NCBI GenBank assembly: GCA_951406725.2
Contig: OX597815.1
Coordinates: forward strand, 6,882,001-6,946,000
Source: Octopus vulgaris
Lineage: Eukaryota
DNA: 64,000 bases
Reading direction: 5' to 3'
Of this stretch, positions 8,242 through 58,648 are shown in pieces. Both the position numbers and the translations under genes were made by a program. Under the pieces are notes generated by a model. It was given only the letters and a program-made list of their open reading frames with translations, had not been told where the DNA came from and made no database searches. Position 1 is the first letter of the stretch. Each line of letters opens with the position of its first letter.

Positions 8242-8387
8242 TCACACCCAACGTAAATCCTCTTGACGCAATGTAGCTTGTAATTTTCTTGTATCTTTTG
8301 AAATTTGATGAGGTTTTCTCGCCACATTTTCTGAGCCTGTCGGTGGTAGATTCCTGCAAGCCCTTTTCGAAGTTCTTGAATGATTCC
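8242..8387 (-). CDS. CEP57: CEP57-like gene, terminal coding exon ((G)NHSRTSKRACRNLPPTGSENVARKPHQISKDTRKLQATLRQEDLRWV*)
   Basis: Acceptor ctgcttccttAG; phase-1 frame ends KDTRKLQATLRQEDLRWV-TGA, resembling the conserved CEP57-family C-terminus (LLKDM..LQ..L....L.W). This frame is not in the ORF track. Confidence 0.7.
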
Positions 8388-9205
8388 CTAAGGAAGCAGT
8401 TTTGGTTTTACACAGTGATTGGTTGGTTTCTCGTTTTTTCCTCTTTTCGTGTTTAGTTTCTTTCTTTGGCTGAAGAGAAACGAAGAAATATGAAATGGAA
8501 TTGAGAAAAAAAATGGAAATACATCATTTTTACATTGTGTGTGAGTGTATAAAATATATATATCTATAAGAAAACACAAATATTAATGAAGCGGGGGAAA
8601 TAAAAGATCTTTCAAAGACTCCCGGAATGAAATCCTTAACACATAAGAGACTTCCCCCTCTTCTCATCACTCCATCTGTTTCCCGCTTTGTCTCTCCTCC
8701 ATTGTTAAAAGTAAACAGAATAGAAAATATCAATCATATTTACTCTTTACTCTTTTACTTGTTTCAGTCATTTGACTGCGGCCATGCTGGAGCACTGCCT
8801 TTAATCGAGCAAATCGACCCCAGGACTTATTCTTTGTAAGCCCAGTACTTATTCTACCGGTCTCTTTTGCCGAACCGCTAAGTGACGGGGACGTAAACAC
8901 ACCAGCATCGGTTGTCAAGCAATGCTAGGGGGACAAACACACACATACAAACATATACACACACACACTTATATATATATATATACATATATACGACAGG
9001 CTTCTTTTGGTTTCCGTCTACCAAATCCACTCACAAGGCTTTAGTCGGCCCGAGGCTATAGCAGAAGACACTTGCCCAAGATGCCACGCAGTGGGACTGA
9101 ACCTGGAACCATGTGGTTGGTTAGCAAGCTACTTACCACACAGCCACTCCTGAACCTATATTTGTGTATAATGTTAATTTTAAATGATTCTGAGGCTTTC
9201 ATTCC

Positions 9206-9693: not shown

Positions 9694-9838
9694 CGGGTAG
9701 AGGACTTTGCGAATTTTAACCATTTGCTTTGCTTTTGTTTCCATCAGATCCACGAGGTTGTCAATCTCTGTCTCAAGATCTTTGTGTAATTGGCTCTCAC
9801 AGGTTTCGTTATAAAGCTTCGTTAAGTTCTGGTGTTTC
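9694..9838 (-). CDS. CEP57: CEP57-like exon, microtubule-binding domain (KHQNLTKLYNETCESQLHKDLETEIDNLVDLMETKAKQMVKIRKVLYP)
   Basis: AG...GTAAAG boundaries, phase 2->0; aligns by eye to Cep57_MT_bd (HQQLAKLIQE...LECELEALVGRMEAKANQITKVRK). Confidence 0.88.
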
Positions 9839-14264: not shown

Positions 14265-14479
14265 CATGTCAATTGACAGAATTCTCTTTGGAGTTGAGCA
14301 AACAGGTCTTGGAGGTTATTACAGTTCAGCAAAGAAGAACTTGTACAGTCTGTCGAAGCGGTACCAGTAATTAGTCTTTTGTTTGCCGAAGAGTCGAGAT
14401 GCTGACATTTGCTGTGTGGTTTCGTTAAAGTGAAAACGTCCTGCATGTTAACGTCGGCGCCATCTTGATGGGTTAACGA
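14265..14479 (-). CDS. CEP57: CEP57-like exon, linker plus start of MT-binding domain (SLTHQDG...NNLQDLFAQLQREFCQLT-W)
   Basis: tctttctctttccAG acceptor, GTAGGA donor, phase 0->2, matching the next exon; NLQDLFAQLQREF resembles ELSEVLQTLQDEF of CEP57. Confidence 0.85.
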
Positions 14480-16229: not shown

Positions 16230-16304
16230 TTTTAAGGCCGTCTCTAATCTTTCCATTTGTTTTTTCTCTATTGCCAGGGCTTCTTCCAAAAGCTTAATCC
16301 GTTG
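16230..16304 (-). CDS. CEP57: CEP57-like exon, end of centrosome-localisation coiled coil (QRIKLLEEALAIEKKQMERLETALK)
   Basis: ttttctctttctctAG acceptor, GTAAGT donor, 75 nt, phase 0->0; resembles KIKHLEEKL..E..QRK..Q.GLE. Confidence 0.85.
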
Positions 16305-18366: not shown

Positions 18367-18614
18367 TTCAGCCACATTTTGAATAATCGACAGTTGTAAT
18401 ATTTCTCGTTCAAGTCCTGTAATTTGGTCCAGAGATAATTGATGCGTTGAGGATTGATGAAGTGTTAAAGTTTTACTGCTCTTTTGATTTTCCAGCTCTT
18501 TCTGTAGGTTTACCTTGTTTTGCTCTGCCTTCAAAGCCAATTGCCTCAGCTGTTCTAAGTTTTTCTTCAGCAAAATACACCTTGATTTAATTCTGGCTAT
18601 TGATGCTATTACAT
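18367..18614 (-). CDS. CEP57: CEP57-like exon, core of Cep57_CLD ((D)VIASIARIKSRCILLKKNLEQLRQLALKAE...LEREILQLSIIQNVAE)
   Basis: AG/GTAAGT boundaries, phase 1->0; matches CEP57 'AAENKCNLLEKQLEYMRNM...LEQEY.KLT.MQ.LAE'. Confidence 0.9.
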
Positions 18615-19385: not shown

Positions 19386-19562
19386 CTTGAGGATGAGTCC
19401 ATCTTTCAGCTGTTGTTTCATTCCTTGAACTCCTTTGTGAATGATTTTTGTGATCATCTGTCTCAGTAGAGATGGACTGTGTGGTATGAGTTACAGCTTG
19501 GCCAGGTCCAGATTCCAAAATATCAACATGCTGCTTATATGTTTTTAGGCCATTCATTAAAG
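19386..19562 (-). CDS. CEP57: Module 1, exon C1 ((A)LMNGLKTYKQHVDILESGPGQAV...NETTAERWTHPQ)
   Basis: ctttccAG / GTAAAA, phase 1->1; homologous to the CLD start 'AI.SALKNLQ.KI.RLELER.QA'. Confidence 0.85.
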
Positions 19563-19890
19563 CTGGAAAGAAATCAACAAAATATACGTTTGAATATAAT
19601 ATAACCTTTTCTACTCTAGGCACAAGGCCCAAAAGTTTGGGGGAGGGGGGGGGCAATCGATTAGATCGATCCCAGTATGCAACTGGTACTTAATTTATTG
19701 ACCCTGATGAGAGGATAAAAGGCACCATCGTGGAATTTGAACTCAGAACATAGATGTAGATATATATTTAGTCTGTTTCAATATTGTATGTATATTGTAT
19801 ATTATATAAGTTTATCCCAAAGTGTTACCAGAAGAAATGAAAATAAAACATACAGACGCCTGTCAAAGTAAATATGTAGGTTTATATTAA

Positions 19891-20116
19891 CCCATTTGTG
19901 TTGAAATTGCCTGAAAATTCACAGAAACTATTATTTTGACCTAAATAACTGGAAAAAAATTTCTATTGAAATCCGTTTGATACAGATTGCATACGTGTTA
20001 AGAACCTGTTTCATTCTTTGGTACAGATCATACACAAATCACAATTTGTATCAAGTATTTGTTTTATACCCTTACAAATTAAGGGTCAGTTTGAACAGAC
20101 AATCAGCATGAATGGG
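19891..20116. mobile_element. piggyBac-type MITE (partial second copy at about 40484-40583)
   Basis: TTAA|CCCAT ... ATGGG|TTAA. Confidence 0.75.
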
Positions 20117-20148
20117 TTAAAGTAATACAAAGATAGAGAATGGTTTAC

Positions 20149-20314
20149 CTTCTATGTTTGTTTCTGAAAAAGTGTAGACTGGTTTATCAGAAGTCTGATG
20201 ATCATCGTTGATTGAAGGCTTTGTTGTTGGAAGTTTCTTGTAAGAACCAGTGCTGATATCAAAAATCTGATCTGAGTGTGGTCTGGCATCACAACAGCTG
20301 GGAGGACTAAATAC
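20149..20314 (-). CDS. CEP57: Module 1, exon B1 (VFSPPSCCDA...STGSYKKLPTTKPSINDDHQTSDKPVYTFSETNIE)
   Basis: tctttggtacAG / GTAAAC, phase 0->1; resembles CEP57 N-terminal 'KPFLNSDLRRSPSKPTLAYPESN'. Confidence 0.85.
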
Positions 20315-20989
20315 CTGTACCAAAGAAAACAGACTCATGTAACACAACGAAAACTGCACTGGAAAAATTAGCCTTCCTTTCCTACTTGCTTGGTCACATT
20401 TCGCTGAATGAAGGGAAAGCAACACAGAGCTGTGAGGACATTCTTCTGTCCTGCAAGGTACAAGGCAACCTCACTCATGTTGGTGCCGCAGTAAAATGTA
20501 CAGAGTACAATTTCTAAAGCAGCTGACAGATTACATTGTTGAGCAGACTCTTTTAGTCTTCTTAGGGGATGACTATGTCTGTTGGGGCCATAATAAAATG
20601 CACCCAGTACACTGTATAAAAAGTCTGGTATAAAGAAGAGGTTCCAGTGTAGAATTTATGCCAAAATAAAATGTACAGAGCAAGATATATCTTTTGCACA
20701 ATTTGTACCAAGTAATTCCATAATGAAGTTGAAACAAACCTGAAAACACTTGGTCTACTACTACTATCACCACCACTGTCGCCATGACTACTAGCACTCC
20801 TAATCCTTAAATTGTCCCCATTTATGTCTAGGAGGACAACTGCTCCTAATAAGAATTTATTTGGATTGCAATGGTCTAACACAACCCAGCATGAAAAACT
20901 GTCATAAAATGATGACATGACAACTTTGTTTTTGCTTATATATATATTAGTTGGAAAAAGATTAGAGATCTATACAAATCGAATTTGTA

Positions 20990-21392
20990 TATATAAAGGA
21001 TGGAGGTGGAAATAGCACAGAAGTAAATCTAAGACATTTCAATTTAAGAAGGAATTTAATAAAAATGATTTTAAAAATTATATAAAGAAGATATTACTGG
21101 TTTCAATGAATTTCATCAGTAAAAATTTATAAAAATTTGAAGTAAAAACAGTTTATCTTCTGTCTATGGATCAAGAACATGTCTGGGGGGTCAAGAACAT
21201 CTTGATCCCCAGACAGACGATAAACTGTTTTTACTTCAAATTTTTATAAGTTTTTACTGATATTTGAAAAGATGAGATTCATCAAAACTGGTAATATCTT
21301 CTTTATATAATTTTAAAAATCATTTTTATTAAATTCCTTCTTAAATTCTTGGACTTATTTCTGTGCTATTTCCACCTCCATCCTTTATATAT
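20990..21392. repeat. Foldback element, about 185-bp arms (representative of about 10)
   Basis: Arms are mutual reverse complements. Others at 633-825, 1859-2095, 2115-2305, 7117-7203, 9931-10103, 16397-16665, 33190-33350, 38145-38346, 58995-59167, 59228-59664. Confidence 0.9.
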
Positions 21393-22584
21393 ATATGCTG
21401 TGACTGCAAAGACCAGGGCTGCTTCCTGCACAAGTCCTGCATAGCCCCATGCCCATTCAAAGTACCTTGGATTCCAGAACATCCCGCTGTGCTTGAGGAG
21501 ACCTATTGAGTCAAGTACATGAACATCGAAATAAATATCAATGGAAATAGTAGTTGTGATACCTGTGCCGGTGGCACATAAAAAGCACCATCCGAGCGTG
21601 GCCAATGCCAGCGCCACCCCGACTGGCTTCTGTGCCGGTGGCACATAAAAAGCACCATCTGAACGTGGCCGATGCCAGCGCCGCCTTGACTGGATTCCGT
21701 GCCAGTGGCACGTTAAAAGCAACCACCGATTGTGGCCGATGCCAGACTCCCCTGGCACGTAAAAAGCACCCTCTACACTCACGGAGTGGTTGGCATTAGG
21801 AAGGGCATCCAGCTGTAGAAACACTGCCAGATCAGACTGGAGCATGGTGCAGCCCCTGGCTTCCCAGACCCTGGTCGAACTGTCCAACCCATGCTTGCAT
21901 GGAAAACGGACGTTAAATGATGATGATGATGATACATATATACAGCTAGATAGATGCAACCCCATGATTCTGAGTTCAGTCCCACTGTGCAGCACCTTGG
22001 GCAAGAGTCTTCTATGCTTGCCCCAGGCCAACCAATGCCTTGTGAGTAAATTTGGCAGGCAGAAATTGCGTGGTCTGTTGCACATGTCCGTCCGTGTGTG
22101 TGTGTGGGGTACATTTTTGTCTGCCCACTCTCCCCCTCACTGCTTCACATCCGGTGTTAGTTGCTGATGTTCCCTTGACGTAGAGGTTCAGCAAAAGAGA
22201 CAAACAAAATAAGGACCAAACTTAAAAAGAAAAAGAAGTATAGGAGTTGAGTTATTCAACTAAACCCTTTGAAGTGGTGCCCCAGCATGGCCACAGTCCA
22301 ATGACTGAAACATGTAAAAGAAGGTACCTTTTATCCTTTACTTTATCACCACCATCACCATCAAAAACATCATCATCGCTTAACGCCTGCCTTCCATGCT
22401 GGCATGGGTGGGACAGTTTGACAAGAGCTGGCCAGGTAGAAGCCTGCACCAAACTTCTGTAACTGTTTCAGCAGGATATCCTTAGACTGTGCCCATGCTG
22501 GAGGACACAAACACACCAACTCTGGTTGTCAAATGGGGTGGGTGGGTGGACAATCACAGACACAAAGACACACATACAATTCAC

Positions 22585-23105
22585 ACACTGTGCTTGAGGA
22601 GACCTATTGAGTCAAGTACAACAAAAGATCAAATGGAAATTGCATTTGTGATACCTGTGCCGGTGGCACGTAAAAAGCACCATCCGAACATGGCCGATGC
22701 CAGCGCCACCTTGACTGGCTTCCATGCTTTTGGCACGTAAAAAGCACAAACCGATTGTGACCATTGCCAGCCTCGCATGGGATCTGTGTCGGTGGCACGT
22801 AAAAAGCACCATCCGAACGTGGCCGATGCCAGTGCCACCTTGACTGGCTTCCGTGCTGTTGGCACATAAAAAGCACGAAACGATCGTGACCGTTGCCAGC
22901 CTCGCATGGCATCTGTGCCGGTGGCACGTAAAAAGCACCCACTACACTCATGGAGTGGTTGGTATTAGGAAGGGCATCCAGCTGTAGAAACACTGCCAGA
23001 TCAGACTGGAGCCTGGTGCAGCCTCCTGGCTTCCCAGACCCCGGTCGAACCGTCCATCGCATGCTAGCATGGAAAGCGGACGCTAAACGATGATGATGAT
23101 GATGA
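22585..23105 (+). mobile_element. RTE-derived 3' tail element with about 60-bp tandem units (representative of >20 copies)
   Basis: GGTGGCACGTAAAAAGCACC units, GTTGGCGTTAGGAAGGGCATCCAGC, CATGCTAGCATG hairpin, (GAT)n tail. Others at about 100-408, 5720-6186, 21480-21933, 23930-24228, 24683-25075(-), 39440-40015, 53615-53898, 57365-57900, 63200-63737. Confidence 0.85.
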
Positions 23106-23367
23106 TATATATATATATATATGTAAATGATAGGTTTCATACGGATTCTGTCTACTGAATCCACTCACAAGGTTTTGGTGAGCCTGGGACTATAGAAGAC
23201 GCTTGCTCAAGGTGCTATGCAGTAGGACTGAACCCAAAACCATGTGGCTGAGAAGCAAACTTCTTACCACACAGCCACTGGTTTCCAAAATATAGATAAT
23301 TACATGGGTTCTAAAACAGAGACAATTCTTGTAGCACAAATCAATGTTAAATCAACAGAATACTTAC

Positions 23368-23420
23368 TTGATCAGCCTTCTGTTTAGTGGCAGTCTTTGA
23401 TGATCTTTTTTCTTCAGGTT
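23368..23420 (-). CDS. Linker exon A1 ((K)PEEKRSSKTATKQKADQ)
   Basis: cttttatattacAG / GTAAGT, phase 1->0, joins C2 to B1 in frame; paralogous to exons at 28588, 45012 and 51666. Confidence 0.75.
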
Positions 23421-25133
23421 CTGTAATATAAAAGTGGAGATTCAGGTGAGGTCAGGTGTGAGGGGCATGAGCTGTTGAGGTACTCTTGGGTCCTCCCAGG
23501 CAGCCTGTTGAACAGGGTCCCAGTCAGTCCCCATGTGCACAAAATACCTCCTCATCTGCCGTGATCATTTGGCATGTGGTCGACCGACACAAGCCGTCAG
23601 CCCAGCTGGTGGCTCAGTGAAGAGAACACAGTAAGCAGGGGCAAAATCAGAAAATTGACCAACATGGCCAAATGGTCTCTGAGCTGGCGTCCGTCTGAGT
23701 AGAGTCGGCGGTTGGATATGGAATCTGAAGAATGGTAACTCATAAGCCTGTGAAACATCCTTGTACCAAAGGAGTTCAGGCAGTTCCTAAGGGTCCCAGA
23801 CAGTGTCCAAGTCTCACAACTAAAGAGCAGGACAGGGATGGAGAAACAAAAATGCCAAAGGGTTAATTAAGAAACATTCTTTGCAAACCCATTTGTTAGG
23901 ATATTATACAATAAATTCTTTTGAAAGTCATCCGCACCATCCGAACGTGGCTGTTGCCAGCGCCACCCCGACTGGCCTGTGCCGGTGGCACGTAAAAAGC
24001 ACCATCCGATCGTGGTCGTTTGCCATCCTCGTCTGGCCCCCGTGCCGGTGGCACGTAAAAGCACCCACTACACTCACGGAGTGGTTGGCGTTAGGAAGGG
24101 CATCCAGCCGTAGAAACATTGCCAGATCAGACTGGAGCCTGGTGCAGCCTCCTGGCTTCCCAGACCCCAGTTGAACCATCCAACTCATGCTAGCATGGAA
24201 AGCGAGCGCTAAACGATGATGATGATGATATTATTGGGAAAACTGTTTCGGTTGAACAGCAGAGATGAGATTGAAGTTATTATTTGTCAATCATGATATA
24301 AGAGAAATTTTAAAAGATCCCAAAGAAGCAGTTTTTATGGTTTTTGTCTATGTCTGTAATGTAGCAATCATAAGAGAAACTGGCAACTCAGTTTGATGTT
24401 ATTAAATATTGTGGCAAGACTACAGCAGCCTTTGAAGGGAATAGATGGGACCACTACATATAAACAGTAGCGGTCTGATGTAGTGGGCAGTTTGTAGTTT
24501 GGTCTTTGAAGTCAAGGTACAGTTTACAGTTCAAGCTAGTCTGTTGGAAATATTGATTGTTGGTTCTTTGCGTGTCTGTTACTGCCATTGTTTCTATTTT
24601 GTATTGTTATAACACTGTTACAGTGAATTCTTTATCTATTGTCGACAATATGAACCGTACCACAATATTGGAGGCATAAGGATCATCATCATCGTTTAAT
24701 GTCCGTTTTCCATGCTAGCATGGGTTGGACGGTTCAACCGGGGTCTGGGAAGCCAGGAGGCTGCGCCAGGCCCAGTCTGATCTGGCAGTGTTTCTACAGG
24801 TGGTTGCCCTTCCTAACGCCAACCACTCTGTGAGTGTAGTGGGTGCTTTTTACATGCCAGAGGAGGCTGATAACAGCCACGATCGGTTGGTGCATTTTAC
24901 GTGCCACCGGCACAGAAGCCGGCCAAGGTGCCGCTGGCATCGACCACACATGGAAGGTGCTTTTCATGTGCCACCAACACAGGTGCCAGGGGAGGCTGGC
25001 AACGGCCATGTTCGGCTGGTGGTTTTTACGTGCCACCGATACGGAAGCCAGTCAAGGCAGCGCTGGCATCGGTCACATATAACATTAAAACACTGAAAAT
25101 AAAAAGAGTCAATTATCAACAGAAGCTACTTAC

Positions 25134-25307
25134 TATTCTGCTGAGGTGCCAAGTTTTCAAATGTCTCCTTCCCAGCCCTGTTTTTTGGGCAGTTTTTGTA
25201 AGTGTCTGCCTCAGAGAGGAGTCGTTTATTGCGACTCATTGCTAGATTAAGGTCAGATTCTAAATTCTTCATCTGCTTCTCAAAACTTCTCAAAGCAGTC
25301 ATTAAAG
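25134..25307 (-). CDS. Module 2, exon C2 ((A)LMTALRSFEKQMKNLESDLNLAMSRNKRLLSEADTYK...NLAPQQN)
   Basis: ctttccAG / GTAAGT, phase 1->1, open; clear paralog of C1. Confidence 0.82.
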
Positions 25308-25348
25308 CTGGAAAGATATCAACAAAATACAAAATATACCTGTAAAAT

Positions 25349-25822
25349 CAGTTGTTCTCAACAAGGGTCCATGTAAAAGTTTGCTGTTAAAATTTATCTG
25401 CAATAAATGGCTGATACTTCGACAAGACACAAAATATTTCAACACTTATTTTATACAATTTCTAAAGGTATTTAATTATAAAGCAGCGAGCTGGCAGAAA
25501 CGTTAGCATGCCAGGCGAAATGTGTAGCTGTATTTCATCTGACATTACGTTCTGAGTTCAAATTCCACCAAGGTCGACTTTGCCTTTCATCCTTTCAGGG
25601 TCGATAAATTAAGTACCAGTTACGCACTGGGGTCGATGTAATCGACTTAATCCGTTTGTCCTTGTTTGTCCCCTCTGTGTTTAGCCCCTTGTGGGTAGTA
25701 AAGAAATAGGTATTTAATTATGAAGATGTGATAGGATTTTTTTAAACATCCAAAAGCACTGAAAAGGAGAGTAAAACAGAGATCTAAGGGATTGACAGGT
25801 AAAAATTGGTTGAGAAACACTG
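25349..25822. mobile_element. hAT-type MITE with nested tRNA-SINE (25480-25707)
   Basis: CAGTTGTTCTCAAC ... GTTGAGAAACACTG TIRs; SINE flanked by AGGTATTTAATTAT duplication. Confidence 0.7.
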
Positions 25823-25942
25823 GTTTCTATATAATTATGATGATTAAAAATGACTAACAGGTATTTTAAGTCTCATACTGTAACAGAGACAGTGTATGTG
25901 TGTGTATATATTAATGTAATACAATGATGAAGAACTATTTAC

Positions 25943-26099
25943 CTTGCGTTTTAGGTTTAGGAAAACCGTAGACTGGTCTATCAGAAGGTTGCTGAGAATC
26001 ACTGGTCAGAGGCAGCTTCCTGTAAGAACCGGTACTTATGTCATCAAATATCTGCTCTGAATCAGGTTGAAGATCAGAACTGTCAGAGAGGTTAGCCAT
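25943..26099 (-). CDS. Module 2, exon B2 (MANLSDSSDLQPDSEQIFDDISTGSYRKLPLTSDSQQPSDRPVYGFPKPKTQ)
   Basis: tctttggtacAG / GTAAAT, phase 0->1; shares QIFD.ISTGSY.KLP...SD.PVY.F with B1. Confidence 0.82.
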
Positions 26100-26119
26100 C
26101 TGTACCAAAGAAAATGGAA

Positions 26120-26500
26120 ACAATATAGTAAAGAGTGCTTCACAAAGATTGGTCCAGAAAATTCTACAGACTCCAAAAAAAAAACTACTAAACACCTACA
26201 AATCTCAAATGAGACCCAAAATGAAGAATGGATACTAAGTCAGGCACAGAAGCTATAAAAACATCCAGACATCCTAGAACACATCCAAAGAAGGTCATAT
26301 AAGTTATAGGCAAGAGATCACTCACCAAAACGTCCCAACCTCTGAACCACAGAACTACTGTGTCCCCTCTCCCTTCCTCCAACACTCTTTTGTACCAATA
26401 CTACACTGACTACTACCTGGCTTCTGACTAATCAGGCACCGAAGACTCTCTCACCTCTCCAACTATGGAGTGTCAATACACCAAGATCCTGCACTATTCA
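26120..26500 (+). mobile_element. Old CR1/L2-group LINE fragment abutting the B-exon acceptor (also 34110-34290, 42690-42940)
   Basis: Degenerate ASQRL..ARKFF..YKS..RPK.EY.SHIW.GA..LD.IQ.R frame, in the same position next to three B exons. Confidence 0.6.
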
Positions 26501-26506
26501 TTCCAC

Positions 26507-26759
26507 ACCATATGCCCGTGGGCTTATGGCGTAGTGGTTAAGAGCGCAGGCTACTAACCCCAAGATTCTGAGTTCGATTCCAAGCAGTGACCTGAACAAC
26601 AATAATAATAATAACAACATCGAAGAATACCTTAGGAATGAGAACCCAGGTTCGAAATTTCCCCAAGACACCTGATGAAGTCTGGAGGGTATATCAGCCG
26701 AAACGTTGTGTTAACAACAAACAAGATGGGAACAAATATCCGTCAAATGTAAATAATGT
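26507..26759 (+). mobile_element. tRNA/hammerhead element, copy 4 (best preserved)
   Basis: A box TGGCGTAGTGG 26527-26537, B box GAGTTCGATTCC 26570-26581, (AAT)n spacer, HHR 26667-26712; flanked by CATTCCAC direct repeats (26499-26506, 26760-26767). Confidence 0.85.
26667..26712 (+). ncRNA. Minimal type I hammerhead ribozyme motif (Penelope-like)
   Basis: GACAC-CUGAUGA-A-GUCUG(GAGGGUAUAU)CAGCC-GAA-ACGU-U^-GUGUU: stem I GACAC/GUGUU, both core boxes, palindromic ACGU in place of stem III; stem II is GGCUG/CAGCC in copy 1. Confidence 0.75.
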
Positions 26760-27974
26760 CATTCCACCCTGTTCTTCTTTACCAGAATGTTGGTTCTCAA
26801 GGATTCCATCCGTCATCTTGGTTTAACTGTAGACATTGATGTTCAAGAGGACTGTTAACCATGTTGATGGCACCAGTATGAGAGCATCCACAGAAACACG
26901 TCTACAGTTCCTCCCTCCAACATTCACGACAATTCCATGACATGACCATATCAGCAATGAATTCCACAGTAATTCTGTAATTCACAGAACTTTGGACACT
27001 AAACTTTGTTTGCGAAGACTTGTTGAGGCAAGTGAAATCTAAATCAAATTCGACGACTGGCATCCGTGCAAGTGGAGCGCTAAGAGTAACATACGAGCGA
27101 GATCGTTACCAGAGCAACAAGCTGGCCTCCATGCCGATGGCACGTTAAACACACCATTCAAGCGTGATCGTTACCTGTGTCGCCTTACTGGCACTTGTGC
27201 TGGTGGCACGTGAAAAAACATTCAGGCGAGGTCGGTGCCAGTATAATGATTTTTAAGGTATTATTTCCTTTTCTCTCTCTTTCCATTCTCGTTTTCTTTC
27301 CCCTGTGTACTTACAATTTTCCTCTCACACTCACAGCCTCAGTTTCTTGCCACATTCTCCATTTCTCTCAAACACTTTTATTCAAACTTTTCCATTAAAA
27401 GTAATTACAAAGTCTTACTTTGAGACACATGACATCAGTGCCCTGCGAGTGAATTCACTTGATGTGGAAACTGTGTGGAAGCCTGTTAGGTGGATTGTAC
27501 CTCTAACTCAAAGGCCAAGATTGTTTACACACTGATACTGAATCTGTCTGAGGACCATGTTAAGGGGTCACATGTCTGTGGGATACACAGCCATTTAGGT
27601 AATCAGTCAATGTGTAGGTTTCCCAATTGAAGGAACAACTGGAATGACCACCAAAACTGATGTATTGTGGGGGTGGGGTCTGTCTAATCTTTTTTTATCA
27701 AACTCTACCACAGCAAACAAATGATGTGGTAGGATTTGAACTCACAAACTACTCCACTACATTATCTTCTAACTATTGGAAACTGAAAAGAATTATAAAA
27801 TGGTGTTATGTGGAGACCCTGAATGTATCAAAATGCCTGAGTGAACCTAAGCAGAGTCTGCAACTTCTTGTGTACCATCAAATTAACAGCATCCAGGCTT
27901 CAGCCCCAGCTTATCTCAATTGTCATGATATTGTCCAAGATAACACCTGTGCTGGTGGCACATAAAGAGCATCC

Positions 27975-28170
27975 TTTAAACGTTGGGCCTCACAGAGGCA
28001 AAGAAGCTGAGTTCCTCTTGAGCATTGGGCCTCACGGAGGAAAAGTAGCTGACTTGCTTTTGAGTGTTGGGCCACACGGAGGTGAGGTGGCTGAGTTCCT
28101 TTCAAGCGTTGGGCCTCACAAAGGCAAAGCAGTTGAGTTCCTTTCAAGTGTTGGGCCTCACAGAGGCAAT
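27975..28170 (+). repeat. 39-bp minisatellite, about 5 units, inside an RTE 3' UTR
   Basis: GTTGGGCCTCACRGAGGCAAAG..GCTGAGTTCCTTT units; creates the spurious 186-aa ORF. Confidence 0.85.
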
Positions 28171-28587
28171 GACCAAGACCTTTGGCATTATGTCATGCTT
28201 GAGAAGAAGACCCATCAAGCTGAGCAAAATCACGGTCATGGCAGATACCAGCGTCATGCAAATTGGCACCCGTGTCGGTGGCACGTAAACACACCCTGGT
28301 GTCACCAAAAGCACATGTGCCAGTGGCATGTAAGAGCACCCATTACACTCTCAGAGTGGTTGGCGTTAGGAAGGGCAACCAGCCATAGAAAACTATGCTA
28401 AATCAGGCTGGAGTCTGGTGAGCCTTCCACCGTGGCAGCCCGGTCAAACCGTCCAATGGACATTAAATGACGATGATGATAAATACTAATTGACTGAGTT
28501 GATTGAGAGCGGTTTGTTCCGTTCTCCAAAAGAAAACTCCGGGAAATGATTTAAGTAGAGAAATTACTAAATTAATAAAATACTTAC

Positions 28588-28634
28588 TTCAACCTGTTTA
28601 GCAGCAATCACTGATGACATCTTTTGCTGAGGTT
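28588..28634 (-). CDS. Linker exon A2 ((E)PQQKMSSVIAAKQVE)
   Basis: ttttttattgcAG / GTAAGT, phase 1->0; paralog of A1. Confidence 0.75.
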
Positions 28635-29443
28635 CTGCAATAAAAAAGGATTCCATTCTTAAAAAAATACTGGCTCTCAACGATTCATATCCAGACATTC
28701 AAGACCCATCACATTCATAGGAATCATGGAAAAAATGGGATTAAAGCAATGTTTCTGGACACAGGTTTGGTTGTGTGGTGGACAAATTTACTTTGCTATC
28801 ATGGAGTTCAAGTTCAATCCCATTGTAGGACATCTCCAGGAAATGTCTTTTACAAAATTATTTGGGAGCGTAAGGAGACATAAATACTCATTACTTTCAA
28901 GAAAAAACTGCCTTATTTAGTGAGGTAGGGAGTAAACAATGTTCTTCTAAAAACCAACCCCAATAGAAAGGCATCCATTTTGTAGACAGATGACAAAAGG
29001 AGGAGAATGTTGAAGTAATGAATTTAAATGTTGAATCATTCTTGCTGTCATCGTCCTAATCAACATTGGTTTAGATGATGATGATGATGATGATGATAAA
29101 ATGATTAGAGCAAAAATGATTTAACATTTAAATTCATTACTTCAAAAGGAGGAGGATGTTGAGCGTGGCCGTTGCCAGTACCGCCTGACTGGCCCCCATG
29201 CCAGTGGCACGTAAAAAGCACCCACTACACTCTCAGAGTGGTTGGCGTTAGGAAGGGCATCCAGCTGTGGAAACTCTGCCAGATCAGATAGGAGTTTGGT
29301 GCAGCTATTTGGTTCGCCAGCCCTCAGTGAAACCGTCCAACCCATGCCAGCATGGAAAGCAGACGTTAAACGATGATGATGATGATGATGACACACATGC
29401 ATTTATATAAATGAAAGGCAATCATCAATATATATCTTATTAC

Positions 29444-29491
29444 CTTGAGGATGGGTCAATCTTTGAACTGTTGTTTCATTCTTTGGCTTGT
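29444..29491 (-). pseudogene. Truncated extra copy of a C-type exon (…KPKNETTVQRLTHPQ), donor intact
   Basis: 3' end matches C1/C3 (TT..RLTHPQ-G|GTAATA); upstream part is replaced by repeat sequence, with an in-frame TGA and no usable acceptor. Confidence 0.7.
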
Positions 29492-31537
29492 TTCATTTTT
29501 CCCCTTTCTTTCCTTTTCTAGTTTCTGCTAAAGAGCTGTGGCCCCGCTATTTGCTTTGCTATACTTTCATTAAACCTCCTCTAATGTGTGGCATTTGATG
29601 AATGAGGGAGTTTGATGCTGCTGCCCTCATCCGTGTTTCTTGCTGCAAGGTAGGTCCACCCGGAACTCTTGACAAAAGGAGATCCAGTTTTGTTGCGAAG
29701 ATGCCTACATCTACCCCATGTAGGTCCCTCAGGCTTTGTGGAAGGATACCGAAGAGCTATAGGCCCTTGAAGCCCAAACTGTTGCAGTACCTGGGCCTGT
29801 ATCCCAATAGCAATGCTAGAATTTTTGGTATCATGCACTGGCGCCTCGTTCTACTGTTTGTGCAACTGACACTGCCAAAGTTTGGTACAAGTTCCAAGAT
29901 TTTTCCAGATGTATATTACTGCGTATCTTTCCTGCCTTTGTTCTAGGGAGTAGAGTCGTAACTTTTTCAGTCTCTCCCGGTAGCTGACATGTAGCACTGA
30001 GACAATCTTCTTCATGTAGCTTTGCTCGATTGCTTGGAGTTCATGGAAATTTTTACACTTATATCCATTTATCAGATCAAAATTACAGAGAATATTCCGT
30101 TATCCAAAGTCTCATTCGGTTATACACAAATGTATAAATCATGGTTTTTTGAATAATGAAAGCCTTATGTTATTTTCTGTGTCTATGGCAACTTGGTGTC
30201 TATTGTTTATTGTTATATGAAATGAAATCAATATATCGATTTCGTTTATATTGATTTGAATACTAGAAGAAAACTGCAAGTGTGTGTGCATATATATATA
30301 TATATATATATCAGGGGTGACTCCAGGTCGTCAGCATCACTTGGGCTCATCACAGATTTTTCAGAAGACACATGCCTGTTCATACAATTTCACATTTTTC
30401 TGCTTTATTTCTAGCTCCAAATGGCTTTTTTTTTTTTTGTATCTAGCACTATGTCTTTCTCCTTTTCTAAGTTAAGATTTAAAATAAAGCAACCTTGCAA
30501 AACACAATTGATTTTTACACACAGACGCACAGAATAACAGCAATCAAATAACAACAGCAGAGTGCACAATAAACATCAGCGATCTGACTGTCACCGACAA
30601 GAGATGCCAGTTAGTTTTTTACGCCTACCAGGCTCATTCATATTAACCTGAACTGCTGGATAAATTTTCATTCCTTTAAGATTATTGCAGAACACAAACT
30701 TTTCATAGATTGGAATTTAAATATTAATCTCTATAGAAATTTGTTTCAAGAAAGCACCAACCGATCGTGGCCGATGCCAGACTCCCCTGGCACGTAAAAG
30801 CACCCACTACACTCACGGAGTGGTTGGCGTTAGGAAGGGCATCCAGCTGTAGAAACACTGCCAGATCAGACTGGAGCCTGGTGCAGCCCCTGGCTTCCCA
30901 GACCCCGGTCGAACCGTCCAACCCGTGCTAGCGCGGAAAACGGACATTAAACAATGATGATGATGAAAACATTGAATTTGAATTACTTTTAATTTTTACG
31001 GTTATTGAAAACAACTCAGGCTGTAACTTCTGACCCCGAGTCAGGTGTGTGTGAACAATGTTGAGAGAATGTCTGCCTCGAATGATATTTTTTGACACAG
31101 GGCACCTCTAGGACGACCGCCAGATACTGAACGAAAATAAATGAACTGGAACCTGGATCAATAAAAGGAGCTCCAGTTATTGGCTGCTGTTACATACTTG
31201 AAGTGTTGGTAGAAATTATATCAGCTTGCAAATACACGTACACTTTACTAAATTTATACTCAGGCTAAGCCCGAACAGCCTGGGTGACAGTTGCCACTGA
31301 TATATATATATAAATATATATATACATACATATATAGGTCCGGCAGTCGCCATAATAGATCGGTAGCCACTACACACATTTTCTTTCTCTCCTTGTTTTT
31401 TCTGTGTCCCTTTCTGTAGAAGAGAGTAGGCTACAAACGTAAAAGATTTTTTCAATTCCTGAGCGTTATACTAATACATCTGTTTGTTTTCTACACTACC
31501 TGTCTTCATCTTTTGTTTTTTTCATGAACTCTCCCCC

Positions 31538-31568
<31 letters not shown>

Positions 31569-32340
31569 AACATTAACATCCACTTGTCCATGCTCACATT
31601 GGTCACACAGAATTTTCAGCCAAGTACCCACCCTTGTGTGCAAGCAGGGTAAGATTTCCCCACGGGGCCAGAGAGTGTTATATGGAACACTCAAAAGTAG
31701 CAACATCGCTTGTATGACAGTAATGTTCATCTGCAACTATAACATAATGTCAAGACAAGGGTACACACAGTATCATCATCTAACATGTTTTCCATGCTGG
31801 CATGGGTTGGATGCTTTGACAGAAGCTGGCAAACTGGAGAACTGCGCAAGACTCCAGTCATCTGTTTTGGCATTGATTCTACAGCTAGATGCCCTTCCTA
31901 ATGCCGACCACTTTACGGAGTGTACTGGGTGCTTTATACGTGGGACCAGCACAGATGGTTTTAATGTGACACAGCACGGATTCTTTTTACACACCTTTTG
32001 CTTAAAAAAACATCTTCTGAGTGTTGGGTCACACAGAGGCAATGACGAATGACCGAGAACCTTGCCATTATGTCATGCTTGAGAAGAAGACCCACCAAGC
32101 CAAGTAAAATCAAAGTAGCGGCAGATACTGGTGTCACACAAATGGCACCCATGAAAGTGGCACATAAAAATACTCATTACATTCTTGGAGTTGTAGGGGT
32201 TAGAAAGGGCATCCAGCCACAGAAACCATGCCAAATCAGACTGGAGTCTGGTTCAGCCTTCCAGCTTGCCAGTATGGACAACGGACATTAAATGATGATG
32301 ACACAAATGAAAGACAGTTATCAATCAATATGCTTATTAC

Positions 32341-32514
32341 CTTGAGGATGGGTCAATCCTTTGACTGTTGTATCATTTCCTGAATTGTCTTGGGAATAGT
32401 TTCCGTAAGCATCTGGCTCAGAGATGCAGTGTTTACTATGACTCATAGCTTGGCTATGATCAACTTCTTCATTTTCTAAATCTTCCTCAAAGCTTCTCAG
32501 AGCAGCTCGAAATT
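32341..32514 (-). CDS. Module 3, exon C3 ((E)FRAALRSFEEDLENEEVDHSQAMSHSKHCISEPDAY...TTVKGLTHPQ)
   Basis: T-rich tract + cAG / GTAATA, phase 1->1, open; paralog of C1/C2. Confidence 0.8.
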
Positions 32515-34019
32515 CTGAAAAAAAAAAAAGAAGTATATATATATATTCTTTTACTCTTTTACGTGTTTCAGTCATTTCACTGCGGCCATGCTGGAGCACC
32601 GCCTTCAGTCGAGCAAATCGACCCCGGGACTTATTCTTTGTAAGCCTAGTACTTATTCTATCGGTCTCTTTAGCCAAACCGCTAAGTGACGGGGACGTAA
32701 ACACACCAGCATTGGTTGTCAAGCAATGCTAGGGGGACAAACACAGACACACAAACATACATATATACGACAGGCTTCTTTCAGTTTCCATCTACCAAAT
32801 CCACTCACAAGGCATTGGTCTGTCCGGGGCTATAGCAGAAGACACTTGCCCAAGATGCCACGCAGTGGGACTGAACCCAGAACCATGTGGTTGGTTAGCA
32901 AGCTACTTACCACACAGCCACTCCTGCATCTATATATATATATAAGCATGTAAAAGGCACCATTCGAGCATGATCGTTACCAGCGTCACCTTATTGGCAC
33001 ATAAAAACACCATTTGAGCATGGTCATCTTACTGGCCCTCGTACCGGTGGCACGTAAAAGCATTCAGCTGTAGAGAATCTGCCAGATCAAGACTGGAGCC
33101 GGGTGCAGCCATCTGGTTCACCAGTCCTCAGTCAAATTGTCCAACCCATGCTAGCATGGAAAGTGGACATTAAACGATGGTGATGATGTTGCTGTGATTT
33201 AGCCCCAGGAGACATTGTCTCCAGCTGGCTATACGACATGATCTGTGTCCTTATATTTTCAAACAAGGGAATCTAGCACCACTATAAGGACATAGATCAT
33301 GTCGTACAGCCAGCTGGATACGATGTTTCCTGGGGCTAAATTACAGCAACATTCGTCCTAAACCAGGACTGCCATGTTATGTTGGCAAACAATCTTTACT
33401 CCAAAGTACTGTTGCTGAATATCTCTCGTTGTGAGATTTACAAATAGTAATTTTCTAATGATGTTGGTATGTTTATATCCATGTAACTTAGCAGTTCAGT
33501 AAAAGAGACTGACAGAATAAGTACTCATCATCATCATCATCGTTTAACGTCCGCTTTCCATGCTAGCATGGATTGGACGATTTGACTGAGGACTGGCGAA
33601 CCAGATGGCTGCACCAAGCTACAATCTTGATCTGGCAGAGTTTCTACAGCTGGATGCTCTTCCTAACGCCAACCACTCCGAGAGTGTAGTGGGTGCTTTT
33701 TACGTGTCACCGGCATGGGGCCAGTCAGGCAGTACTGGCAATGACCTCGCTCGAATATTTTACACATGCCACCAGCACAGGCGCCAGTAAGGCGATGTTG
33801 GTAATGATCACACTCGAATGGTGCCCTTTTACAAGCCACTGGCACGGAGCCAGTTGGCTGCTCTGGCAACGATTACGCTCGGATGGTGCTCTACTGAGCT
33901 TAAGAAAAAAACCAGATTCAATCAATTCATTCAACTATAAATTCTTCAAAGCATTTCCGAAGCATGGCTGCAGTTTAAAGATTGAAACAGTAGATAAAAG
34001 TTAATGGAACATGGTTTAC

Positions 34020-34089
34020 CTTGTACTTGATTTTCAAGAGAAGCGTCCAAAGGTATTTCAATGCTAGAACTACCTGAAAGACTGGACAT
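34020..34089 (-). CDS. Module 3, exon B3 (MSSLSGSSSIEIPLDASLENQVQ), possible start-codon exon
   Basis: ttttcttcgatacAG|ATG ... CAAG|GTAAAC; same boundaries and flanks as B1/B2, internally shortened. Confidence 0.7.
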
Positions 34090-36884: not shown

Positions 36885-37160
36885 AATTAAGGTAGAATAA
36901 GGTAATTACTTATAAACTTTGTGTCCGGAATATAGGAATATCTTCATAGCGTCAAAATGTCGTATATTTGTCATTTCAATGAGAAATTTAGTCCACATTT
37001 AGTCTAAATATGTTTTGCCAACGGAGGATATTAACAACATAACAACTTCACTGAAACTTATTTACGCCTGTTGCTAAGTCGATTACCTCCCCTCTCTTTC
37101 TTCGCTTCTCACATTTACCTCCCCTGATTATTAGCATCATTTTTGGCGCCATTTCGTTTC
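36885..37160 (-). promoter_or_regulatory. Candidate promoter / first exon of the CEP57-like gene
   Basis: Unique, repeat-free stretch with a YY1-type AAATGGCGCC motif (within 37141-37156, minus). Candidate donors after 37087 (GAG|GTAATC; ATG 37152 gives MAPKMMLIIRGGKCEKRRKRGE, phase 0, compatible with B3) and after 36885 (GTAAGT). Confidence 0.35.
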
Positions 37161-40100: not shown

Positions 40101-40215
40101 TTTTCATGTTATAAAGAATTTACAAATCAAAAGTAAGAATACGTATTTATTAATTGCTGATATTACTTTCCAGAAGCACCAGTCTTTCAGCTGTTCTTTC
40201 CTTCCTTGCGTTCTT

Positions 40216-40328
40216 TCATAAACGTTCTTTGAAAGCATCTAATTCTTCATTATCAATCAAGGCTTGCCTATGTTTCGCTTTAGCATGTTTTAAATCTTCG
40301 ACAAAGTTTTTGAGAAGATCTTCAAATT
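40216..40328 (-). CDS. Upstream paralog chain, exon C4 ending at TGA ((E)FEDLLKNFVEDLKHAKAKHRQALIDNEELDAFKERL*)
   Basis: gtctgtccAG acceptor, phase 1; C-type homology continues past TGA (KNARKERTAERL) to a donor at 40166; AATAAA at 40151-40146. Confidence 0.65.
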
Positions 40329-41428
40329 CTGGACAGACATGAACAAAAGAACATTTGAAGCAAATTATGATGATTAAAAGAAACATCATTAGACATTTAC
40401 ACGTATAATATTTCGACTGCAATGGACATAAGGTGGATGGCTGGATGGATGGACAGATGTTTATATATTTATATATTTATATGATACAGATCATACACAA
40501 ATCACAATTTGTATCAAGTATTTGTGTTATACCCTTATAAATTAAGGGTCAGTTTAAACGGACGATTGGCATGAATGGGTTAAGCAAGAACCAGAGGTCA
40601 ATAACAAGTAAGAGAGATGGTATGGAAAGCAGTGACTATTGGGGTCGACTAAAAAACTCAATCTCTACTCTTTCCAATGCCGCCAGGAGTGCTACATCAT
40701 TTGTGTGATGTGGAAAATATTCCATCAATATTGCTCAAATGATGTTGGCATCAATTTTAAAATCCATCCAAGACTTGGCCCCATGCAATCTGCCCACTTC
40801 AAAAAGTTACAAACATCCACTTGATATATTGATAAATAAAACCACTAGAGTTGTTTTGTAACTCTTTTACCTGTTTCAGTCATTTGACTGTGACCATGCT
40901 GGAGCACCACATTTAGTCGAGCAAATCGACCCCCACCACTTATTCTTTGTAAGCCTAATACTTATTCTATCGGTCTCTTTTGCCATACTGCTAAGTTACG
41001 GGGACACAAACACACCAGCATCAATAGTCACATGATGTTGGGGGACAAACACAGACACACAAACATACGCACACACATATATATACATATATACGATGGG
41101 CTTCTTTCAGTTTCCGTCTACCAAATCCACTCACAAGGCTTTGGTCAGCCCGAGGCTATAGTAGAAGACACTTGCCCAAGGTGCCACACAGTGGGACTGA
41201 ACCCGGAACCATGTGGTTGGTAAACAAGCTACTTACCTCACAGCCACTCCTGTGCCTAAAGTCAGAGTAAATTCATGATTATTTTAGAATTCAAGTGAAA
41301 TATTGTATTTTAGTTTGAAATATAGTAAAGATTACATTAAAACATCTTTCAATCAAATAAACTTTCCCTTTTGGTTTTGTCATTACTAAGCTAAAACAAC
41401 AATGGGTTTGTCGCATCCTTAGTACTGA

Positions 41429-41912: not shown

Positions 41913-41942
41913 TAGTACTGAATCAGTTAAAATATATAGGTG

Positions 41943-42551: not shown

Positions 42552-42614
42552 GGTGGCTATTAAAGAAAACGTAGACAGTATATTAATGTAACACAATGTA
42601 AAAGTATGGCTTAC

Positions 42615-42666
42615 CAAGCACATTTTCTGAAAGAATGCTTTTATGGGGTGACACAGCAGGAAACTC
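42615..42666 (-). CDS. Upstream chain, exon B4 (EFPAVSPHKSILSENVL)
   Basis: Long pyrimidine tract + cAG / GTAAGC, phase 0->1; intronic flanks homologous to those of B2/B5. Confidence 0.65.
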
Positions 42667-44906: not shown

Positions 44907-45011
44907 AATAAATAAATATTGATTGACAATTGCATCAGAGTGACTTGGTTTGTTGCATTCTTCAAAAGAGAGCTCCAGTAAATATTTTAAGTAAAGAAGG
45001 TAGTATATTAC

Positions 45012-45049
45012 CTCTTCAGGGATAGGATAAAATGCTTCTTTTTCAGCTT
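45012..45049 (-). CDS. Upstream chain, linker exon A4 ((E)AEKEAFYPIPEE)
   Basis: cttttatattacAG (same as A1) / GTAATA, phase 1->0. Confidence 0.65.
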
Positions 45050-45746: not shown

Positions 45747-45787
<41 letters not shown>

Positions 45788-46838: not shown

Positions 46839-48493
46839 GATATAAATTTGATATGGGCGATTCTTTCTTGTCTTGGAATTCACTGGGTGGAACTGCACAA
46901 AAAATTACACAGATGTGTAGAATGATCCAGTAGTGTTGCTGGCCTTTGTATTTTTCATAGCTCCCATGGTTAGCGAGATAATCTACTATAATAATACTCT
47001 CGTGTTTTTGAATGAGAAAGGAAGGGGTGATAGAGGAATAAGGGTGATGTCATACTTGGTAGTGAGATGATGAAAATTGTATACTGAAAAAATAAATCAA
47101 ACACCGTTTCAACTCTGTGTGAATATATGTGTATGTATGTAAAAGAGGGGTATGTAAATGTTTGTATGTGTGTGTACATGTGCACGCACAATAGAAGTGG
47201 GATCGTTCATCTTTGTTCGCTTAGTATTTGGGTTTATTTTTTGATTTAGTTGAATCTTGGTTTTTTTTTTTTTTTGGACAGTTATTTTTAGTGTTTTGAC
47301 AGAAAATAGTCATTCTAAAATTGTTTTTTAACATAAACATTCCCAAACAAGTCGAATGCTTACACAGAGCAGGTTTTACAGCCATGGCTCACCAGCCCTT
47401 TGAAACCGTCCAACCCATGCTAGCATGGAAAGCAGACGTTAAACGATGATGATGATGTGTTTCCTGAAATGTTAAATGTAAATATAATCATTGTCAAGCA
47501 CGATCGTTGATGTCACCTTGCCGGCACATGTAAAACAACATTCAAGAGTGGTCGTTGCCAGTGCCGCCAGACTGGCTCCTGTGCAGGTGGCACATAAAAA
47601 ACACCATTTGAGCATGGCCATTGCCAGTACTGCCTGACTGGCCCTCATGCCAGTGGCATCTAAAAGCACCCACAACACTCTTGGAGTGGTTGGCATTAGG
47701 AAGGGCATCCAACTGTAGAAACTTTGCCAGATCAGATTGGAGGCTGGTGCAGCCTCCTGGCTTGACAGTCCTCAGTCAAACCATCCGACCCATACCAGCA
47801 TGGAAAGCGGATGTTAAATGATGATGATGATGATGATGATTTTACCGATTCTTGCAGTTCCCATGCACAGGATGAATTTTTAAGAAGTAACCGAAAAAGT
47901 GATCTTTTGTTGCATTTTGTCCCTAATTAAGCAATTTTCAGATTAATTTGTTGTGAGAGGGGGTTTCCTTTCCATGTTATATGTTACACTGCCCCTCCCC
48001 AAAGAAGCCATTTACAATAAATGCCATTACCGTGTGGTACATATACAACTGTTTGATCCATCGCATCTGAACGCTCTTCGAAATCAGACAGGCTCTCTTC
48101 ATAATCTTTATCTCCTAAAAACAACTCTTCTTTAAATTCTGGAAGCACATCAACAGAAGAAATGTTTAGATATAAAGTTTAAAAGAAATCATTGTTAGAT
48201 ATTTAACATATAACACATTTTACAATAATGGAAATCTCTCTCTCTCTCTATTGGTTCTTTATTTTATTGACCCCGAAAAGATGAAAGGCAAATGTGACCT
48301 CAGCGGAATTTGAACTCAGAAGGTAAAGACGGATGAAATGCCGCTAAGCATTTTGTCCAGCGTATCAAAGATTCTGGCAGTTCACAGCCTTGCATCAGCC
48401 AAATTATGTCAACTCCAATATCCCTACACATTTGTTAGGGGTTTGTTGGAGAAACAGAAAGCTGATGAAGGACAGTGCTTTTAATTTACCTAT

Positions 48494-48997: not shown

Positions 48998-49156
48998 CTG
49001 GTATATATCGTGTCCTATCCATTAGGCCCACAGTGGAAATGTCCCCTTCAGCTGCTAGATAAGATGAGTACCATTTAATTTGATTCACATTCCTCTTAAG
49101 TTCAGCTTCTTCTAATTCTAACTCTTCCTCAAAGCTTTTAATAGCATTTAGAAACT
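48998..49156 (-). CDS. Upstream chain, exon C5 ((E)FLNAIKSFEEELELEEAELKRNVNQIKWYSSYLAAEGDISTVGLMDRTRYIP)
   Basis: gtcttttcAG / GTAATA, phase 1->1, open; F..A..SFEE.LE.EE shared with C3. Confidence 0.75.
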
Positions 49157-50124: not shown

Positions 50125-50314
50125 CTTGTATCTCAAGTTGAGTAGAAATGCTCAATCGTTTATCAGAAGCTGGCAAGTCTATAGTATGAAGCTGTTGAGA
50201 AAGTTCCAAAGAAGGTGCCCGAGAAGGTTCCGAAGGAGGCGCTCGGGAAGTTCTCACAGGATGTGCTCGAGACATTCTCACAGGTGGAGGTCCGAGACAA
50301 CATAATAAACGATA
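50125..50314 (-). CDS. Upstream chain, exon B5 (YRLLCCLGPPPVRMSRAH...LPASDKRLSISTQLEIQ)
   Basis: tttatttcAG / GTAAAC, phase 0->1, open; 3' end SDK....Q resembles B1/B2; internal 24-nt tandem repeat. Confidence 0.7.
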
Positions 50315-51665: not shown

Positions 51666-51709
51666 TCCCTTAGGAATACGGGGTAACATTGCCGCAATAT
51701 CTTCAGGAT
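51666..51709 (-). CDS. Upstream chain, linker exon A5 ((D)PEDIAAMLPRIPKG)
   Basis: ccttttatattgcAG / GTAAGT, phase 1->0. Confidence 0.7.
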
Positions 51710-53395: not shown

Positions 53396-53476
53396 CTAGT
53401 GCTGGAGGTGATCTCAAAATTGATTTTCTCTTCACTATATCCATTGAGGGTTTCGGGCGAGGTTCACGGCGGAGCA
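53396..53476 (-). CDS. Upstream chain, short phase-1 exon ((V)LRREPRPKPSMDIVKRKSILRSPPAL)
   Basis: tatattttaccAG / GTAATA, 81 nt, phase 1->1; flanks duplicated with the exon at 55477. Confidence 0.65.
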
Positions 53477-55476: not shown

Positions 55477-55530
55477 CTGGTATACTGCCCAAAGGTCTCA
55501 TTAAATCGAATTCCGCATCATCATCATCAT
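55477..55530 (-). CDS. Upstream chain, short phase-1 exon ((D)DDDDAEFDLMRPLGSIP)
   Basis: tatattttccAG / GTAATG, 54 nt, phase 1->1; ends ATACCAG|GTAAT like C5. Confidence 0.65.
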
Positions 55531-58578: not shown

Positions 58579-58648
58579 CTTCTATCCTAACTGTGGGAGT
58601 AGCACCACGCAAGTCGTCGTCTTTGAAATCAGCATAATCATAAGGGGA
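58579..58648 (-). CDS. Upstream chain, exon B6 (SPYDYADFKDDDLRGATPTVRIE)
   Basis: ctttgctccAG / ATAGAAG|GTAAAC, the same donor context as B1; phase 0->1. I could not find its upstream exons. Confidence 0.65.

Follow-up and report, generated by a model that had tools for sequence, protein, structure and literature searches.

The human centriolar protein CEP57 and its relative CEP57L1 are among the closest described counterparts of the gene analyzed here, and the complex of Cep57 with Cep63 has been solved only recently (PMC13720213). According to that report, I69, L73, L76 and I80 in the segment encoded by human CEP57 exon 3 (residues 68-128) mediate a 2:2 bundle with Cep63, the protein dimerises over E86-L108, and the region 277-334 drives both oligomerisation and microtubule binding; deletion of exon 3 leads to MVA2, an aneuploidy syndrome (PMC13720213). 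Residues 68-103 (PINC) are reported to bind pericentrin (PMC6389942), and a Lys/Arg motif (257-264) to promote phase separation (PMC11194501). We analyzed a window of 64,000 nt from Octopus vulgaris that carries a member of this family on its minus strand. Human CEP57 has one exon-2/exon-3 block, whereas the octopus gene has three in tandem, with the best copy of the exon-3 helix detached from the rest of the coiled coil. On balance we favor a reading in which the middle copy of this helix, C2, is the likely working Cep63/pericentrin-binding site, and the other two copies, C1 and C3, have largely decayed to spacers or weak sites.

Joined by their coordinates (Table 1), exons B3-C3-A2-B2-C2-A1-B1-C1-D-E-F-G give 1701 nt, or 567 open codons, from the ATG at 34089 to 9694, in agreement with an earlier note made from the DNA letters. 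The last exon, H, which that note overlooked, adds 75 codons and the stop, for a whole protein of 642 aa. All eight module exons lie where they had been placed, with AG/GT ends, in-frame splicing and phases of 0-1 (B), 1-1 (C) and 1-0 (A). The module copies are homologous beyond chance, B3 excepted: B1 and B2 share 57-60% amino acid identity (E 3e-10), C2 and C3 44% (E 1-6e-9), C1 and C3 36% (E 5-7e-7), and A1 and A2 72% nucleotide identity over 87 nt (E 9e-9). B3 is the weakest copy, with no protein-level match to B1 or B2 and 39 nt at 74% around the acceptor, and is recognisable mainly through position, phase and acceptor; its residues are identical at 23/23 positions in the O. sinensis protein and at 22/23 in that of O. 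bimaculoides. The module is thus present three times in the CEP57 frame, as had been claimed, while the locus as a whole holds six module copies, not three.

The assignment to the CEP57 family is borne out by matches to both Pfam domains. Cep57_CLD (PF14073) scores 57.8 bits for P0005 and 53 for P0001 (cut-off 28), and Cep57_MT_bd (PF06657) lies C-terminal to it, with 39.7 bits in the ortholog P0001 (cut-off 31.3), to which window exons F and G are identical at 71/72 and 48/48 residues. On their own, the three C exons match no Pfam family. Human CEP57 and CEP57L1 (PDB 9I7Q, 8IBH, 4L0R) have the same domains in the same order, and the C-terminal motif is kept in octopus; the octopus gene is not specifically either of the two, which group together as a vertebrate pair in our tree. 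The window gene is the only copy detected in the genome: a search for a second canonical CEP57 or a retrocopy, in which the best candidates were scored, gave one PF14073 match among 7 candidates, and a search with C2 gave matches at the CEP57 locus only (2/2 candidates). PF06657 matched once more (E 0.78), in a stretch whose translated frame looks unrelated, and this match was rejected as a second CEP57.

Spliced transcripts were sought among 24 listed sequencing runs, 0 of them on record as RNA and 0 with a tissue label; we used four runs guessed to be RNA, from three studies, with X5 and X9 taken from 14 small-share rows. A 2607-nt contig of run X2 contains C3, B2, C2, B1, C1 and D in order and intron-free (C3 at 101-274, B2 at 322-478, C1 at 872-1048, D at 1049-1296), and the intervals left between them, of exactly 47 and 53 nt, match A2 and A1 in length. 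In run X9, from a different study, an 884-nt contig contains C3, B2, C2 and B1 with the same 47/53-nt gaps; run X5 joins B1, C1 and D and has B2 on a separate contig; run X1 has no exon contig among its 8 pieces listed. Genome searches, with the best candidates scored, found no retrocopy able to mimic the spliced contigs. Contigs from two studies therefore join C3-A2-B2-C2-A1-B1, which supports a spliced three-module transcript, the runs being guessed RNA. The earlier note had named, as the outcome that would overturn it, transcripts that start at B1 or B2 and never include the upstream modules; from C3 onward the contigs contradict this outcome. The X2 and X9 contigs have 100-101 letters ahead of C3, which would accommodate the 70-nt B3, and B3 itself is not among the matches listed. 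Base substitutions set the X5 and X9 contigs apart from the window in C1, C2 and B2 (19472-19475, 25223-25225, 25980-25987), as would be expected of another allele or a close relative; module exons vary between close lineages.

The module had been described as lying ahead of the centrosome-localisation domain. This does not hold for exon C, which is that domain's first exon: positions 1-175 of Pfam Cep57_CLD align to residues 283-461 of the O. sinensis orthologue, beginning at exon C1, which accounts for positions 1-60. Exon C is as long as human exon 3, and its start corresponds to human residue 68; human numbering was transferred through PDB chain 9I7Q_A, which aligns to the same segment of the single-module protein P0017. 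Judged from its position, exon B would correspond to human exon 2. On the partner side, the N-terminal exon of octopus Cep63 matches 9I7Q_B (E 0.001) and has L, L, V and I at human positions L25, L28, M29 and I32. This exon lies at L017 1525-1716 (-), on G000:C24, and is the sole PF17045 match above cut-off among 18 candidates.

Which of the three C copies carries the binding helix? We scored each against a position profile from single-module relatives, divided into a binding half (68-84) and a dimer half (86-108), with 500 shuffles of the module region as the null. C2 scores +15/+3 (binding/dimer half), with +15/+5 in O. bimaculoides and +21/-4 in Argonauta; C1 scores -7/-27, with -13/-18 and -6/-14 in the same two; C3 scores -13/-12; and the best of the 500 shuffles reaches -4/+7. 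C2 is the only copy above the shuffled null over the binding half, and the ranking is the same in O. bimaculoides and Argonauta, so that a hand-over to a displaced copy is likelier than three equal sites. C2 is identical to O. bimaculoides at 51/58 residues, compared with 41/59 for C1, and to Argonauta at 31/58, compared with 23/58. In the predicted monomer, helices span residues 16-51 (C3), 149-187 (C2, 39 residues) and 278-299 (C1, 22 residues), and a coil at 300-339 (40 residues) separates C1 from the exon D helix. The canonical arrangement, a single PINC helix continuous with the coiled coil, was not found: the continuous copy, C1, is at shuffle level, and the best copy, C2, is displaced. 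A small DNA tree groups C3 with C1, not C2 (support 0.93), indicating that the third module was likely copied from an already decayed C.

The three-module protein also appears in the public annotation of O. sinensis (644 aa, XP_036356561) and O. bimaculoides (642 aa, XP_014778169), and the O. vulgaris models CAI9716914-16 have the same module exons; window exons exactly match O. vulgaris-named proteins where compared. The public octopus models show the same exon chains, and their names ("uncharacterized", "cep57l1", "hypothetical") give no hint of the repeat, nor of the descent of the upstream gene described below from CEP57 exons. The Argonauta hians model GAB1598605 (544 aa), which may be short at its start, has two modules. 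We compared these with 115 other family proteins of at least 400 aa, using a threshold of 12 bits for a C-like stretch: 114 of the 115 hold one, and two such stretches occur only in P0035. This 605-aa CEP57-family protein resembles the octopod ones in having a second, partial C-like stretch ahead of the domain (35 bits), but its positional copy is intact (67 bits), and thus no hand-over has taken place; the second stretch is likely an independent duplication event. In a 29-row tree, with octopod rows trimmed to begin at exon D, the octopod stem measures 2.3 changes per site and groups with the single-module proteins P0017 and P0095, which are closer to the octopod clade than are the other 24 rows (100/100) and likely come from other cephalopods. 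The single-module CEP57 proteins of bivalves, gastropods, a chiton and a brachiopod, like P0017 and P0095, are orthologues that differ in having an intact central motif and much shorter branches. The earlier description of the gene as lineage-specific and fast-evolving therefore agrees with the distribution of modules (three in three Octopus species, two in Argonauta, two C-like stretches in 1 of 115 others) and with the length of the octopod stem.

The octopod proteins have also lost part of the center of the molecule. About 70 residues between exons E and F, comprising a poly-Lys/Arg stretch and HYRL..PFVAG, are absent, so that the octopus protein differs from human CEP57 in both elements, and its oligomerisation helix is eroded. 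A PFVxG-like motif is present in 107 of the 115 relatives, compared with 0/3 octopod proteins, and tblastn over 194 kb found no remnant of the lost central exons. Several annotated isoforms are altered in the region that follows: in O. vulgaris they skip F and G, and in O. bimaculoides they end after E or skip F; in the annotation, P0005-P0009, P0012 and P0013 are without microtubule-binding exons.

Upstream of the CEP57 exons, the window contains ten further exons of A, B and C type (40167-58648), overlooked in the earlier note, in the order B6-C6b-C6a-A5-B5-C5b-C5a-A4-B4-C4. They encode a frame of 311 codons that ends in C4 and is identical to the O. vulgaris "hypothetical protein" P0016 (CAI9716917; models CAI9716917-18); its 27-nt ATG exon lies ~12 kb past the right end of the window (G000:C2 near 6957937). 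The other two frames of the exon chain contain 21 and 36 stops. Intron flanks, with the splice consensus excluded, group by class (donor z up to 16 for C, 10 for B and 7 for A), and all 18 module exons of the locus fall in the frame-preserving length class, despite 15 different lengths. In a neutral simulation of 3000 runs with substitutions only, the chain remained stop-free in 524, 100, 10 and 4 runs at 0.05, 0.1, 0.2 and 0.3 changes per site; how old the chain really is remains uncertain, paralogue dS (synonymous divergence) being 0.4-1.1 on short exons. P0016 has no match to the Cep57 families or to any other Pfam family, and aligns to the orthologue P0001 with 26% identity over 180 aa (E 6e-5). 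To judge from sequence, the upstream frame is derived from CEP57 module exons, yet is not a member of the CEP57/CEP57L1 family. A genome search with P0016 gave matches only at this locus (7 of 13 candidates scored), the ESM Atlas gave no usable match for it, and no more modules were found in the adjoining 100 kb on the right and 30 kb on the left, save the ATG exon. We regard this frame as a likely young paralogue that is expressed and consists of modules only; that it competes for Cep63 is a guess.

We propose that the N-terminal exon block was first duplicated on the octopod stem, before the Argonauta/Octopus split, that C2 would then have kept the Cep63/pericentrin-binding face while C1 eroded, and that module 3 and the upstream gene would have arisen from later copies. 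Such a protein would continue to link Cep63-Cep152 (via C2) to centriolar microtubules (via the C-terminal domain); its predicted flexible linker would exceed the usual length by ~150 residues and, in the absence of the poly-Lys/Arg and oligomerisation motifs, its self-assembly would be reduced. Several observations weigh against this proposal. The structure model is low-confidence overall (mean predicted local distance difference test score, pLDDT, of 47, from six sequences). C2 reaches 13-19 bits, compared with a median of 70 for single-module proteins, and lies below every one of these relatives, which are in-sample, as are the 45 full-length relatives that score at least 29/10 in the two halves. 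Two of the core positions of C2, 76 and 80, are occupied by Phe and Met, and its dimer half (+3) is below the null maximum (+7). Paralogue dN/dS (the ratio of nonsynonymous to synonymous divergence) among C exons is noisy, 0.38-1.83, with several values near or above 1; none of 52 candidates was a counterpart of the upstream gene in another species, and its transcription rests on public annotation. C1 and C3 are, moreover, hydrophobic at all four core positions 69/73/76/80 (L-L-Y-V in C1 and F-L-F-L in C3, with L-L-F-M in C2) and helical in the model, and C3 is well conserved, at 58/58 and 48/58 identical residues between species. These features of C1 and C3 would also fit the multivalent protein of the earlier note; on such a reading, all three C copies would bind Cep63 or pericentrin, with up to 3x partner per dimer, perhaps compensating for the lost oligomerisation and poly-Lys/Arg motifs. 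All three C exons are spliced in and conserved across species, and human Cep57 is reported to act through multivalent contacts (PMC11194501). The profile supports this proposal weakly: C1 and C3 are within the shuffled range over the binding half, where C2 alone beats the null, C3 has no hydrophobic residue at position 83, and the dimer half of C1 is broken by Gly-Pro-Gly in this genome. We consider multivalent binding rather unlikely.

It is also doubtful that octopod CEP57 has simply lost much of its inner-pericentriolar role, with duplications and deletions as tolerated debris and no copy that binds Cep63 well. The long octopod stem, the lost central motif, the weakness even of C2 and the annotated isoforms without microtubule-binding exons would all be expected of such a relaxed gene; against it, B1, B2, B3 and C2 are at least 88% identical to O. 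bimaculoides, near the level of single-copy exons, dN/dS between B1 and B2 is 0.23, Cep63 retains its binding face, and every exon length preserves the frame. Nor do we expect that the upstream and CEP57 exons form one long gene for a single six-module protein, an arrangement that we regard as highly improbable. The O. sinensis model P0004 does splice C5a-A4-B4 onto B3, but out of the module frame, B4 ending in phase 1 and B3 beginning in phase 0; there is an in-frame stop within C4, no A-type exon was found between C4 and B3, and the O. vulgaris annotation has two genes. The P0004 splice hints at read-through transcripts, which probably exist. Beyond the hand-over of binding to C2, one can imagine that octopods rebuilt the linker from centriole to pericentriolar material (PCM), trading self-assembly motifs for an array of Cep63-binding exons and moving binding to the displaced copy, with the module-only neighbor gene acting as a Cep63 decoy or a tuner of centriole number, possibly co-transcribed with CEP57; we give this scenario little credence. 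For the germline or sperm role raised in the earlier note, the runs, which name no tissue, gave no evidence in either direction. A centriolar rootlet channel has been described in octopus sperm, in a report whose available part makes no link to this gene (PMC11753710).

The gene models discussed here are already public. At the level of titles and abstracts, no published account was found of the repeat anatomy, of the apparent hand-over to C2, of the central loss or of how the neighbor gene arose, and tables of genome papers may list the gene. Tandem exon duplication is a common process, which tempers the significance of the repeat as such. The octopod gene, with its binding exon duplicated, the original copy decayed and self-assembly motifs dropped, nonetheless offers a natural experiment on what the CEP57-Cep63-Cep152 scaffold really needs among its parts, and it bears on whether linker length sets the geometry of the inner PCM. 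The upstream frame, for its part, would be a clear case of a new gene made from recycled exons of an essential centriole gene.

Table 1. Exons of the CEP57 gene and of the upstream module-only frame, by position in the window.
Feature	Position	Strand	Length (nt)	Phase	Remarks
5' exon of CEP57 gene, 3' part (predicted)	37087..37140	-			annotation splices it to B3; N-terminus of P0005 reads here; GT donor
Exon B3	34020..34089	-	70	0-1	ATG straight after acceptor
Exon C3	32341..32514	-	174	1-1	acidic, decayed copy of the Cep63-binding exon
Orphan 3' end of another C exon, donor included	29444..29480	-			86% over 73 nt to end of C3 plus donor, E 8e-19
Exon A2	28588..28634	-	47	1-0	adapts the frame from module to module; two contigs have a gap of 47 nt here
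Exon B2	25943..26099	-	157	0-1	ATG at its beginning
Exon C2	25134..25307	-	174	1-1	best-kept copy of the Cep63/pericentrin-binding helix (profile, structure model)
Exon A1	23368..23420	-	53	1-0	53-nt gap in two contigs
Exon B1	20149..20314	-	166	0-1	closest to the pre-helix segment of the family (18 bits; profile built from 46 single-module proteins)
Exon C1	19386..19562	-	177	1-1	first exon of Cep57_CLD by position; decay in the second half (Gly-Pro-Gly, insertion of one residue)
Exon D	18367..18614	-			Cep57_CLD positions 65-140; E 2.4e-8, 34.7 bits, above cut-off
Exon E	16230..16304	-			end of Cep57_CLD; family's following ~70 residues absent
Exon F	14265..14479	-			eroded oligomerisation-helix region and start of Cep57_MT_bd
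Exon G	9694..9838	-			Cep57_MT_bd positions 30-77; E 9.2e-6, 26.5 bits, alone below cut-off
Exon H	8242..8469	-			last coding exon; family's C-terminal motif and stop
Exon C4	40167..40328	-			holds stop of 311-codon frame; 70% over 81 nt to C3
Exon B4	42615..42666	-	52	0-1	
Exon A4	45012..45049	-	38	1-0	
Exon C5a	48031..48138	-	108	1-1	
Exon C5b	48998..49156	-	159	1-1	77% over 90 nt to C3, E 6e-12; 100% to P0015
Exon B5	50125..50314	-	190	0-1	
Exon A5	51666..51709	-	44	1-0	
Exon C6a	53396..53476	-	81	1-1	C-type from intron flanks only
Exon C6b	55477..55530	-	54	1-1	C-type from intron flanks only
Exon B6	58579..58648	-	70	0-1	

Within the CEP57 gene, A2 contains an in-frame ATG (MSSV...), and B3 and B2 each open with an ATG right after the acceptor; from these codons, starts of shorter proteins at A2, B3 or B2 are possible. 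The Argonauta protein begins at exon B2, as does one O. bimaculoides isoform (P0002), and the upstream ATG frame of the 5' exon of the CEP57 gene (37087..37140) is not common to the O. bimaculoides models. Exon A may descend from an ancestral start exon. We rejected the idea that it is exon D in shortened form: the two match over 31 nt around the donor, but this match is gone once the splice consensus is excluded (z <=2).

The orphan C piece between C3 and A2 is skipped in the contigs, where the gap from C3 to B2 is A2 only. A broken fragment resembling a long interspersed nuclear element (LINE) lies directly ahead of it (29560-30300, minus strand) and may be what broke up a fourth C copy within the gene. 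Several abundant families of short interspersed repeats, together with microsatellites, fill the window's introns. A CpG-rich segment in the B4-C4 intron (42150-42550) was rejected as a gene promoter; it is a high-copy repeat (40/40 scored matches of 777 candidates), 89-94% identical to genome copies, itself excluded. Several copies elsewhere are paired ~2.1 kb apart, like the ends of a small element of the long terminal repeat type, and the copy here is alone. The next gene downstream of CEP57 is a 181-codon open frame on L012, ~1.6-2.1 kb left of the window on the minus strand, which we take, from its motif, to resemble a LigB-type (DODA-like) ring-opening dioxygenase.

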